Of a stretch of 64,000 nucleotides of DNA, positions 52,583 through 53,589 are shown piece after piece. The stretch's first letter is position 1, and each line of letters begins with the position of its first letter. Source of the stretch: Clostridia bacterium. GTDB taxonomy: Bacteria > Bacillota > Clostridia > TANB77 > CAG-508. The stretch spans positions 24,021 to 88,020 of the forward strand of contig JBKUYM010000005.1 of NCBI GenBank assembly GCA_046964515.1, read 5' to 3'. The notes under the pieces are model-generated. The model was not told the DNA's origin. It worked only from the letters and a program-made list of their open reading frames with translations, and searched no databases. Made by a program: the position numbers and the translations under genes.

Positions 52583-52611
52583 TTGACATTTTTCAAAATA
52601 TTTTGTATAAT
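52583..52611 (+). promoter_or_regulatory. Consensus sigma-A promoter of the tRNA operon.
   Basis: TTGACA, 17-nt spacer, TATAAT (ctcTTGACAtttttcaaaatattttgTATAATaaaaat), about 20 nt upstream of the first tRNA. Confidence 0.65.
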
Positions 52612-52630: not shown

Positions 52631-52707
52631 GCTCCCTTAGCTCAGTTGGTCAGAGCAACCGGCTCATAACCGGTGGGTCCAAGGTTCAAATCCTTGAGGG
52701 AGCACCA
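52631..52707 (+). tRNA. tRNA with CAU anticodon. Closest resemblance is to Firmicute tRNA-Ile2 (lysidine, LAU); elongator tRNA-Met is not excluded.
   Basis: GCTCCCTTAGCTCAGTTGGTCAGAGCAACCGGCTCATAACCGGTGGGTCCAAGGTTCAAATCCTTGAGGGAGCACCA. Cloverleaf with 7-bp acceptor, CUCAUAA loop, encoded CCA. Confidence 0.85.
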
Positions 52708-52757
52708 TTCTTTATTATAATGGTTTTCCACTAACGTTATATTTTAATTTTATATAT

Positions 52758-53068
52758 GGGTAGGTGGCCGAGTGGCTAAAGGCGGCAGACTGTGATCTTT
52801 AGTTGATTCAAAACTTAAATTTGCAGCTCATACAAGTGATTGTATGATGAAAACCGGGCTAATTCGGGGAATTCTAAGGATAAATTTTTTATCTATGACA
52901 ATCCCGAGCTAGAAAATTTATTTTCGAGTGTAGAGACTTTATACCTGGTATCTTGAAAAAGATAAAGAGAAAGTCCAGACTACAAACATTTTATGGTAGT
53001 GAAAACTATAGTAGTAAGAAATCTGTTCTCATACGAGTACGATGGTTCGAATCCATCCCTGCCCACCA
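52758..53068 (+). tRNA. tRNA-Tyr (GUA) gene interrupted by a 225-nt intervening sequence between anticodon-loop nucleotides 35 and 36.
   Basis: Exon 1 GGGTAGGTGGCCGAGTGGCTAAAGGCGGCAGACTGT and exon 2 AAATCTGTTCTCATACGAGTACGATGGTTCGAATCCATCCCTGCCCACCA join to a class II tRNA nearly identical in architecture to B. subtilis tRNA-Tyr (loop CUGUAAA, long variable arm, encoded CCA). Confidence 0.75.
52794..53018 (+). ncRNA. Putative self-splicing group I intron (225 nt, no ORF) inside tRNA-Tyr.
   Basis: 5' exon ends in U and the intron ends in G (omega G). One internal guide sequence AUUUGCAG (intron nt 26-33) pairs with the exon 1 end CUGU (P1, with the U.G wobble at the splice site) and with the exon 2 start AAAU (P10). 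R-like element CCAGACUACAAAC pairs with GUAGU just before the 3' splice site (P7-like). GAAA-capped hairpins (UAUCUUGAAAAAGAUA, UAGUGAAAACUA) are present. Confidence 0.55.
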
Positions 53069-53106
53069 AAAATATCGTAAAATGCATTTTACGATATTTT
53101 TATTTT
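53069..53106 (+). terminator. Rho-independent terminator after tRNA-Tyr.
   Basis: AAAATATCGTAAAATGCATTTTACGATATTTT hairpin plus a T-run. Confidence 0.7.
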
Positions 53107-53165
53107 CTTAATTTTTTTATTCTTTATTTTCTCTTTCCAAAACTAATAAATTACATTTAAAGGAT

Positions 53166-53589
53166 GTGAAATTCATGTATTTTCATACCAACAAGCAAAA
53201 AGGAAATACTAGTCTTGCTATTGCCATTGCTTATTATGTATCCAATGGTTATACAATCTCTATTCCATTAAATGATACGCAGGATTATGACTTAATTATC
53301 GATAAAGCTAATCATTTGAAAAAAGTTCAAGTCAAATCTACATCTTGTAAAACAAAATACGGTACTTATCAAGTTTCTTTAAAAAGTTGTGGCGGTAGCA
53401 ATCGGAAAGACTTATAAAACATTAATAGATACGAACATTGATGAAGTCTTTATCTTAAATGAACTTTTAGAAATTTATATTATCCCCTTTTCTATTATAA
53501 AAAATAAGTGCTCTTTAAATCTGTGTAATAGATATGAAGAATATAAAATTTTTCCAAAAAACCAAAAAAATTTTCCATATTTTAGATAA
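53166..53589 (+). CDS. PD-(D/E)XK nuclease-fold protein (Hjc/archaeal-resolvase-like), interrupted by a +1 frameshift at 53403. ORF-track fragments are 53166..53417 and 53389..53589.
   Basis: KGNTSLAIAIAYYVSNGYTISIPLNDTQDYDLIIDKANHLKKVQVKSTS parallels the Hjc core (G-S-S...D-x-I-A...E/Q-x-K-S-T). AAT CGG AAA gives GGSNRKDL*. Deleting the C gives ...CGGSNGKTYKTLIDTNIDEVFILNE..., continuous with the second ORF. Confidence 0.5.

Follow-up and report, generated by a model that had tools for sequence, protein, structure and literature searches.

We analyzed a 64,000-nucleotide (nt) stretch of a Clostridia bacterium contig (JBKUYM010000005.1), hereafter the window, and found that it carries a tRNA-Tyr(GUA) gene split in its anticodon loop, between nucleotides 35 and 36, by a 225-nt insert. 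We hold with high confidence that this insert works as a group I intron. Introns of this class are textbook knowledge in the anticodon loops of bacterial tRNAs, and the intron type, the 35/36 position and the tRNA-Tyr(GUA) host are all already known, so the locus does not define a new category. What is worth a note is the breadth of this intron in gut Clostridia and phages, together with the endonuclease gene that flanks it. Overall, we regard the element as a real and ordinary member of a known intron type, with an endonuclease association of moderate interest.

The structure of the split gene was read directly from the sequence. Exon 1 comprises the 5′ strand of the acceptor stem, the D arm, the 5′ strand of the anticodon stem and loop residues C32, U33, G34 and U35, with CUGU at its 3′ end. 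Exon 2 starts with AAAUCUG and supplies A36, A37 and A38, the 3′ strand of the anticodon stem, a long variable arm, the T arm, the 3′ strand of the acceptor stem and a terminal, encoded CCA. Joining the exons in silico produced an 86-nt class II tRNA, called by ARAGORN as tRNA-Tyr(gta) with encoded CCA. In intron mode, ARAGORN also recovered the gene from the native, unspliced sequence as tRNA-Tyr [52758,53068] i(37,225). A preliminary description of the locus had proposed a tRNA-Tyr(GUA) gene split by 225 nt, an insertion between anticodon nucleotides 35 and 36, and an insert at 52794–53018 that ends in G and holds no open reading frame (ORF); sequence reading, in silico splicing and the intron-aware tRNA search that it had suggested agree with it to the base. 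Detection depends on the search mode. Default ARAGORN and a scan of the whole window at Rfam gathering thresholds missed the split gene and reported the neighboring tRNA-Met alone, and finding it required both ARAGORN intron detection and an E-value-based Rfam scan of a short stretch (52700–53120).

That 421-nt scan returned a single strong Rfam match, to the group I intron model RF00028 (44.9 bits, E = 2.3e-10; curated gathering score, 50). The match spans model positions 1–253, which is the full model, and aligns GUGUAGAGACUUUAUACC with the R element and AAAGAGAAAGUCC with the S element. To examine the fold, we used an alignment (A1) of the window sequence with 106 distinct genome sequences and 3 phage sequences, giving 110 rows and 286 columns. 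Unguided RNAalifold on this alignment recovered the anticodon stem, P1, the P1 extension, P2–P6, P8 and two hairpins of the 3′ domain, with compensatory changes in 38 of 57 pairs. To this fold we added two elements, the pseudoknot formed by P7 and the helix that closes the 3′ domain. In the resulting full structure, 98.8% of 7,727 alignment cells hold standard pairs, compared with 37–42% when the 3′ partners are slid by 1–3 columns. Double changes occur in 41 of the 71 pairs (504 cells), and none of 500 shuffles matched any of five measures. The window sequence alone folds to most of the helices. The earlier assignment to group I is thus borne out by a full-model match and strong covariation. 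A covariance-model search had been proposed as its check, and the result is divided, with full model coverage at a significant E-value and a score short of the gathering value.

The internal guide sequence AUUUGCAG occupies intron nt 26–33, where the preliminary description had placed it. P1 is formed by its GCAG and the CUGU of the exon; in this helix, the exon CUGU plus the adjoining intron G faces UGCAG (52822–52826). U52793 and G52823 form the wobble at the 5′ splice site, which is a U·G pair throughout the 110 aligned sequences; the adjoining three exon pairs do not vary either. By direct reading, the AUUU of the guide may also pair with AAAU of exon 2 as a P10 of 2–4 bp that overlaps the P1 extension, again as suggested earlier. 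In A1, the anticodon stem (CAGA/UCUG) is paired in every cell, with one compensatory change. The P1 extension is missing from the phage introns.

The catalytic core is composed of the P4–P6 and P3–P8 elements. P4 (UCGGGG/UCCCGA) shows compensatory changes in 2 of 6 pairs, P5 with its P5a hairpin in 4 of 5, and P6 (CUAGAAA/UUUCGAG) in 5 of 6. Within P5, direct reading shows a motif, UCUAAG...UAUGA (52873–52878 and 52894–52898), that resembles an 11-nt receptor; we take it to be the 11-nt GAAA-tetraloop receptor with its outer C–G pair replaced by U–A. The 5′ strand of P7 (52933–52940) pairs with AAAGUCC (52970–52976). In group I introns, a bulged A and a G–C pair in P7 form the guanosine-binding site, which the terminal G enters at the 3′ splice site. 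P7 is separated from the 3′ strand of P3 by three nucleotides, and that strand from P8 by none, so the intron has no P7.1 or P7.2. Failure to fold into a catalytic core had been named as grounds for abandoning the group I reading; instead, P3, P4, P5/P5a, P6 and P8 all carry compensatory pairs and P7 is conserved.

The 3′ end of the intron differs from its first description. A pairing of CCAGACUAC with GUAGU had been put forward as P7-like. The pairing is real, but Rfam places R and S elsewhere, and together with covariation this identifies it as a P9.0-type helix (ACUAC 52979–52983/GUAGU 53011–53015; compensatory changes in 2 of 5 pairs), the outer helix that closes the 3′ domain; we therefore ruled it out as P7. 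A small RNAalifold hairpin at alignment columns 161–174 was also dropped as a P7 competitor. The P9.0-type helix ends three nucleotides before the terminal G and encloses a small extra hairpin (CAU..AUG, 52987–52995) and P9, forming a three-way domain. P9 had seemed to be missing; it is present at 52997–53008 as UAGU-GAAA-ACUA, with compensatory changes in 4 of 4 pairs. In the phage introns, a single continuous GAAA-capped hairpin stands in place of the three-way domain.

Table 1. Coordinates of the split tRNA-Tyr gene, its intron and adjoining features in the window.
Feature	Position	Strand	Basis
tRNA-Tyr(GUA) exon 1, GGGTAGGTGGCCGAGTGGCTAAAGGCGGCAGACTGT	52758..52793	+	ARAGORN, spliced and unspliced sequence
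Group I intron, 225 nt, ORF-less, between anticodon nt 35 and 36	52794..53018	+	RF00028 match; covariation, 110 sequences
P1 extension hairpin, UUUAGUU/AACU-U-AAA	52798..52819	+	3 of 7 pairs compensatory
Internal guide sequence, AUUUGCAG	52819..52826	+	Direct reading; P1 part invariant in 110/110
P2 hairpin, UCAUACAA-GUGA-UUGUAUGA, GNRA loop	52828..52847	+	8 of 8 pairs compensatory; 99.9% of cells paired
P3 5′ strand CCGGG, partner 52944–52948	52854..52858	+	5 of 5 pairs compensatory
P4-P5-P6 domain	52864..52928	+	A1 pair counts
P7 5′ strand, G[A]GACUUU (GAGACUUU), inside R element GUGUAGAGACUUUAUACC	52933..52940	+	Rfam alignment; 7 of 7 pairs invariant, 110 sequences
P3 3′ strand CCUGG, pseudoknot with P7	52944..52948	+	A1 pair counts
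P8 hairpin, UAUCUU-GAAA-AAGAUA	52949..52964	+	5 of 6 pairs compensatory
J8/7 and P7 3′ strand, AAGAG AAAGUCC, S element	52965..52976	+	Rfam alignment; invariant across A1
3′ domain	52979..53015	+	A1 pair counts
Terminal guanosine (omega-G), 3′ splice site	53018..53018	+	G in every aligned sequence
tRNA-Tyr exon 2, AAATCTGTTCTCATACGAGTACGATGGTTCGAATCCATCCCTGCCCACCA	53019..53068	+	ARAGORN
Putative sigma-70-type promoter, TTGACA, 17-nt spacer, TATAAT	52583..52611	+	12/12 consensus match
tRNA-Met(CAU)	52631..52707	+	ARAGORN; Rfam tRNA model, 73.3 bits
Perfect 14-bp inverted repeat, AAAUAUCGUAAAAU GC AUUUUACGAUAUUU, then U-rich run	53070..53107	+	Direct reading
Free-standing PD-(D/E)XK homing-endonuclease pseudogene, I-Ssp6803I family (PF11645)	53175..53589	+	Pfam, PDB 2OST, tblastn

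The same intron is widespread. A genome pattern composed of GACTGT, the guide TGCAGC and GTGTAGAGACT matched at least 119 loci in species-representative genomes. Among the 119 matches listed, ARAGORN in intron mode called 111 as tRNA-Tyr(gta) with an intron of 198–235 nt at the same position, and 4 as tRNA-Asn(gtt). The junctions GACUGU/ and G/AAAUCU (slash, splice site) are common to these 111 loci and to 54 metagenome loci that were found via the neighboring endonuclease protein alone, so the split gene is no chance arrangement. The hosts are almost all gut or rumen metagenome-assembled genomes (MAGs) labeled 'Clostridia bacterium' or 'Clostridium sp. CAG', plus one Anaerolineales MAG, and two relatives (L134 and L188) share both the flanking genes and the intron with the window. 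A viral pattern built from the guide and two core elements returned 14 IMG/VR loci. At three distinct phage loci (L008, L009 and L010), tRNA-Tyr is split at the same point. The intron family is fixed at 35/36 in many uncultured gut Clostridia and also occurs in phage tRNA-Tyr genes. The preliminary description had considered a tRNA-Tyr host with a 35/36 insertion unusual, a view that does not survive at least 111 species-level genomes and phages that carry it.

Previous reports capture little of this range. The accessible text of a recent survey (mSystems 2026; PMC13011429), which covers complete genomes only, lists a Patescibacterium with a tRNA-Tyr(GUA) intron at 35/36 and counts a single intron at this position in Bacillota_A; neither the breadth of the intron nor a flanking endonuclease gene is reported in that text. 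We found no published account of the breadth of the intron in gut Clostridia MAGs or phage tRNA genes, nor of a recurrent free-standing PF11645 gene behind it. The phage introns in tRNA genes seen here differ from the statement in a 2014 review that phage introns all lie in protein-coding genes (PMC3984707). Cultured phages yielded no close relative of the intron, only core matches of ~60 nt. Closely related introns were also seen in viral contigs within tRNA-Asn GTT (L007, L011 and L018) and tRNA-Arg TCT (L014 and L019), and in L016/L020, a non-tRNA context in which no tRNA was found. In LR756501.1, an unannotated 735-kb uncultured phage, an endonuclease homolog (187074–187445, 45% identity) lies 3 kb from a ~60-nt P7–P9 match (190291–190353).

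Self-splicing would be expected from the conserved anatomy and from knowledge of the family, and a pathway can be proposed from group I chemistry and the Azoarcus and Anabaena pre-tRNAs. A precursor holding tRNA-Met and tRNA-Tyr would be transcribed from the promoter at 52583, and the intron would fold into P1–P9, seating exon-1 CUGU on guide GCAG with the U·G wobble at the splice site while the anticodon stem remains paired. Docking of the P9 GAAA loop in the 11-nt-type receptor of P5, together with the P2 GNRA loop, would stabilize this fold. Free guanosine bound at the P7 G–C pair would attack after U35. The terminal G53018 would then enter the G site, and the freed 3′-OH of U35 would attack after G53018, joining U35 to A36.

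Several observations weigh against a functional intron. The RF00028 score lies under the gathering threshold, and a whole-window scan at that threshold does not list the match. Neither P1 nor P7 varies in A1, so there is no covariation evidence for either helix, although their invariance fits catalytic roles. The fold of the single sequence is modestly better than that of shuffles (z = −1.8). In addition, the window is 64 kb of a genome, and an uninterrupted second tRNA-Tyr could sit elsewhere. Taken with the decay of the adjoining endonuclease gene, the low score and the partial view of the genome would suit a dead insertion in a tRNA-Tyr pseudogene whose work is done by an uninterrupted copy. 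We consider such a pseudogene very improbable. Both exons are intact and conserved in at least 111 species, and the 28 distinct spliced sequences all fold as tRNA-Tyr. Compensatory changes occur in nearly every helix, which indicates selection on the RNA fold, while the splice-site U·G, P7 and the terminal G never change. According to the accessible text of PMC13011429, a genome rarely has both an intron-bearing and an intron-less copy for one anticodon. That intact exons and the fold have been kept in more than 100 species argues strongly that the intron is spliced in vivo.

The split gene appears to belong to a small tRNA operon. The predicted promoter, identified by consensus match alone, lies upstream of the tRNA-Met/tRNA-Tyr pair, and the inverted repeat with its U-rich run, directly after the tRNA-Tyr CCA, is likely the intrinsic terminator of the operon. 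Because the promoter precedes tRNA-Met and the hairpin and U-run come right after tRNA-Tyr, the two tRNA precursors likely share one transcript. The hairpin is absent from the output of a terminator scanner, its stem having too few G–C pairs. The G+C content of the window is 29.3%. The terminator position in homologous loci is occupied by different hairpins. Elsewhere in the window, a T-box leader (RF00230, 23127–23359, minus strand; 104.7 bits, gathering score 93) is unrelated to the tRNA-Tyr intron.

Downstream of tRNA-Tyr, the preliminary description had noted a PD-(D/E)XK nuclease gene at about 100 nt, outside the intron. This placement is correct, as the ORF starts 107 nt after the 3′ end of tRNA-Tyr, behind the terminator-like hairpin; membership of the I-Ssp6803I family and a frameshift had been overlooked. 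The N-terminal frame stops at 53415–53417 and the C-terminal half follows in another frame to 53589, as two tblastn pieces in different frames, and comparison with homologs places a one-base insertion within 53397–53403. The N-terminal half matches the N-terminal half of the PF11645 profile only (E = 4e-17), and the repaired protein matches profile positions 2–109 of 138 (E = 1e-17). PF11645 matches reach E = 8e-19, with scores of 62.9–68.5 bits against a cut-off of 26.1. PADLOC returned an 'HEase' match (E = 9e-8). The only PDB match is 2OST (E = 3e-5 with the single sequence, 1.3e-7 with a profile), which we take to be I-Ssp6803I, encoded inside the Synechocystis tRNA-fMet intron and presumably with its target in the tRNA-fMet anticodon arm. 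The same truncated gene of 80 amino acids is present in an independent metagenome contig (L004), so the frameshift is not an error in the window. The window thus carries a degraded copy of a free-standing homing-endonuclease gene of the I-Ssp6803I family.

Homologs of this gene recur behind the intron-bearing tRNA-Tyr. We examined the 97 genome loci, among the matches listed, that had enough downstream sequence. A full-length homolog on the same strand, mostly 55–120 nt after tRNA-Tyr, was found in 44, and endonuclease remnants in 8. Three of the 44 full-length homologs have an in-frame stop and 41 have none. The median pairwise dN/dS (ratio of nonsynonymous to synonymous substitution rates) of the 41 intact genes is 0.24, and these homologs, from about 40 species other than this one, are under purifying selection. 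Comparison of L021 with L052 reveals a clean cassette of ~400 nt, composed of a ribosome-binding site and the ORF, that is present or absent right after the terminator hairpin, while L029 and L049 differ by an internal deletion in the endonuclease gene. Intact, stop-bearing, remnant and absent states, together with this clean indel, form the pattern expected for the homing-gene cycle of invasion, decay and loss, in which the window copy would be at the decay stage.

A protein-seeded search (seed, alignment A2) gave a second, biased view, as its set is the best 80 metagenome relatives of proteins from intron-bearing loci. Among the 70 metagenome loci with enough upstream sequence, 54 have an intron-bearing tRNA-Tyr 64–274 nt upstream, 5 an intron-less tRNA-Tyr 70–75 nt upstream and 11 something else. 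Across genome and metagenome loci, the endonuclease gene lies 55–274 nt downstream of the tRNA. Upstream of homologs without a tRNA, a Rfam gathering scan found no known RNA. In five loci (L160, L165, L171, L184 and L187), a conserved stretch with a tRNA-like T arm and GCACCA at its end (…UUUUUCGAAUACGUC…GCACCA) lies ~100 nt upstream of the endonuclease ORF; it was not recognized by ARAGORN or Rfam, and perhaps represents a further split or atypical tRNA-like gene. One contig (ERZ824473.840, 17228–26446; L160 and L169) carries two endonuclease copies ~4.8 kb apart, one after an intron-bearing tRNA-Tyr and the other after the unrecognized tRNA-like sequence. Three pairs of loci (L107/L131, L025/L030 and L027/L106) share introns that are 99–100% identical and endonucleases that are 85–98% identical, and the next 1 kb has no detectable similarity, so synteny breaks directly after the endonuclease gene. 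In L190 and L210, only the 3′ part of the intron and exon 2 precede the endonuclease gene, and in L190 the 5′ part has been replaced by GC-rich sequence of no relation to it. A rearrangement or a chimeric assembly could account for this.

Phage homologs occupy a wider range of sites. In L009, a homolog follows an intron-bearing tRNA-Tyr, and in L142, L143 and L154 one stands beside an intron-less tRNA-Tyr. Others lie beside tRNA-Ser(GCU), tRNA-Gly or tRNA-Arg in tRNA arrays. Homologs annotated as hypothetical lie 3–15 nt upstream of tRNA-Ser(GCU) in the T5-like Escherichia phage SelmaRatti (L235, 1507–1878) and in Bacillus phage BCP12 (L236, 1486–1881), and eight IMG/VR phages (L145–L152) have one ~40 nt upstream of the same tRNA. 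These positions suggest a wider family of tRNA-array endonuclease genes. In phage L141 (IMGVR_UViG_3300020201_000012, a 104-kb contig; 2341–2932), tRNA-Tyr is split exactly at CUGU/AAA by 507 nt, and its halves rejoin into a good cloverleaf. Within this insert are a degenerate tRNA-like sequence and a PF11645 ORF, the stop codon of which spans the junction; no group I signal was found in the insert.

The endonuclease gene is most likely a selfish element, apparently either riding beside the intron-bearing tRNA gene or cooperating with it. A free-standing homing element of its own, like T4 SegB, has in our estimate a chance just short of even. Such an element would target the site downstream of the terminator where it is inserted, or DNA close to that site, or else other parts of tRNA clusters, and would be the neighbor of an old, vertically inherited intron. 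The clean presence or absence of the ~400-nt cassette, the gene's position beside intron-less tRNA-Tyr, tRNA-Ser, tRNA-Gly and tRNA-Arg in phage arrays, and its patchy spread with nonsense, frameshift and deletion remnants, as for the homing-gene cycle, are consistent with independence. SegB is itself an earlier example of a free-standing endonuclease located among tRNA genes (PMC2330249). However, the sequence that follows the terminator varies widely from species to species, which makes it a poor homing target, and an independent element leaves unexplained both the L141 insertion exactly at 35/36 and the very strong preference of close relatives for tRNA-Tyr.

These two observations would instead suit collaborative homing, in which the endonuclease would cut the anticodon arm of an intron-less tRNA-Tyr at or near 35/36, the intron would split the target and protect its own genome, and repair would copy both. 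I-Ssp6803I, a tetramer, recognizes a pseudo-palindromic 23-bp target (PMC3384342), and PF11645 genes lie inside tRNA-fMet and tRNA-Arg introns in the accessible text of PMC13011429. Only ~110–170 bp separate the intron site from the start of the endonuclease gene, the layout of intron and endonuclease recurs in phage L009, and in the protein-seeded search 54 of 59 adjoining tRNA-Tyr genes contain the intron. We compared endonuclease-plus with endonuclease-minus alleles for immunizing changes in the tRNA-Tyr exons and found none; no exon substitution separates them, so any immunity would not come from exon changes. Set against such cooperation, the 54 of 59 comes from a biased set, and the intron does not occur wherever the endonuclease does, as 5 of the 59 tRNA-Tyr genes are intron-less beside an intact endonuclease ORF. 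Three of those five (L180, L226 and L228) have an anticodon arm with exactly the sequence of the spliced arm of the window gene. The gene is paired with intron-less tRNA-Tyr in the three phages L142, L143 and L154, its cultured-phage relatives stand beside tRNA-Ser with no intron, and 45 of the 97 intron-bearing genome loci have no endonuclease gene at all. We therefore consider cooperative cutting of tRNA-Tyr possible but unlikely. The corresponding larger proposal, that the intron-bearing tRNA-Tyr and the I-Ssp6803I-like gene form a composite homing unit common to gut Clostridia chromosomes and phage tRNA arrays with the intron as immunity determinant, is likewise tentative and improbable. 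If true, it would make this the first case of collaborative homing at a tRNA gene in bacteria and a living intermediate towards endonuclease-containing tRNA introns such as the Synechocystis tRNA-fMet intron, with phage L141 as a side branch of the same process.

The split gene has practical consequences. As standard tRNA finders (ARAGORN at default settings and Rfam at gathering thresholds) overlook it, more than 100 gut Clostridia species would seem to be without tRNA-Tyr, and this apparent loss affects genome-completeness checks and codon-usage inference. If the split gene is the only tRNA-Tyr gene, every tyrosine codon depends on RNA-catalyzed splicing. Natural variation across the intron family also yields a deep alignment for a small group I ribozyme. 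Loci with the I-Ssp6803I-type gene intact, nonsense-mutated, frameshifted, internally deleted or absent are useful for following the association and decay of a homing gene and an intron.

Comparison with the Doudnabacteria tRNA-Tyr(GUA) intron listed in PMC13011429 (GCA_016699995.1) shows the same tRNA, the same CUGU/AAA site and the same guide UGCAG. The two introns share UGCAGCUCrUAC, CCGGG, GUAGAGACUnnAUACCnGG and AGAnAnAGUCCA at near-identical motif spacing (102 vs 106 nt and 26 vs 25 nt). The window intron is longer (225 vs 192 nt), has the P1 extension hairpin and the extra 3′-domain hairpin, unlike the Doudnabacteria intron, and resides in gut Clostridia rather than Patescibacteria.

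Introns of the IC3 type in tRNA genes, such as those of Azoarcus and Anabaena, have an anticodon-loop site, a stem that is kept, a length of ~200–250 nt and no ORF, all as in the window. Compact IC3-type traits are present, including P2 with a GUGA loop (L2), P9.0 and P9 with a GAAA loop (L9), and the UCUAAG/UAUGA receptor in P5. When aligned to the Azoarcus sequence, the window intron appears to share AAUUCGGnGAA, CCUAAG..UAUGn, CCGAGC and GUGUAGAGACU, which is a lead rather than a test. The 205-nt intron of Azoarcus pre-tRNA-Ile contains helices P2–P9 and P9.0 (PMC13168695), and the window has this same set, with no P7.1/P7.2. Differences from the IC3 type are the host tRNA, the P1 extension, the extra 3′ hairpin, the AU-rich composition and the loop position, 35/36 here versus 34/35 in tRNA-Leu in the accessible text of PMC13011429. 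That text also describes in vitro self-splicing of 35/36 tRNA introns and uses subgroup models to assign 25 of 28 of them to subgroup IA. The architecture of the window intron, with its Azoarcus-type helix set and no P7.1/P7.2, reads as IC3-like, a provisional label taken from the helix set; most 35/36 introns are placed in IA in the survey text.

The endonuclease resembles I-Ssp6803I in its PF11645 membership, its size (~126 amino acids here vs 151), its retained D...QxK catalytic motif and its association with a tRNA gene that has a group I intron. It differs in that the gene lies outside the intron, the host is tRNA-Tyr and not tRNA-fMet, and the window copy is frameshifted. Close I-Ssp6803I homologs are generally cyanobacterial (PMC3384342), whereas those found here are in Clostridia and phages. 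The locus also shares features with phage systems of free-standing endonucleases. Collaborative homing in phages reportedly involves cyanophage psbA with F-CphI and Aeromonas phage Aeh1 nrdA with MobE. These pairs and T4 SegB have an endonuclease gene beside a gene with an ORF-less intron or in a tRNA region, with a patchy occurrence among relatives, and the same is seen here; in contrast to them, the present locus is a bacterial chromosomal tRNA gene, and its enzyme is of the PD-(D/E)XK type.

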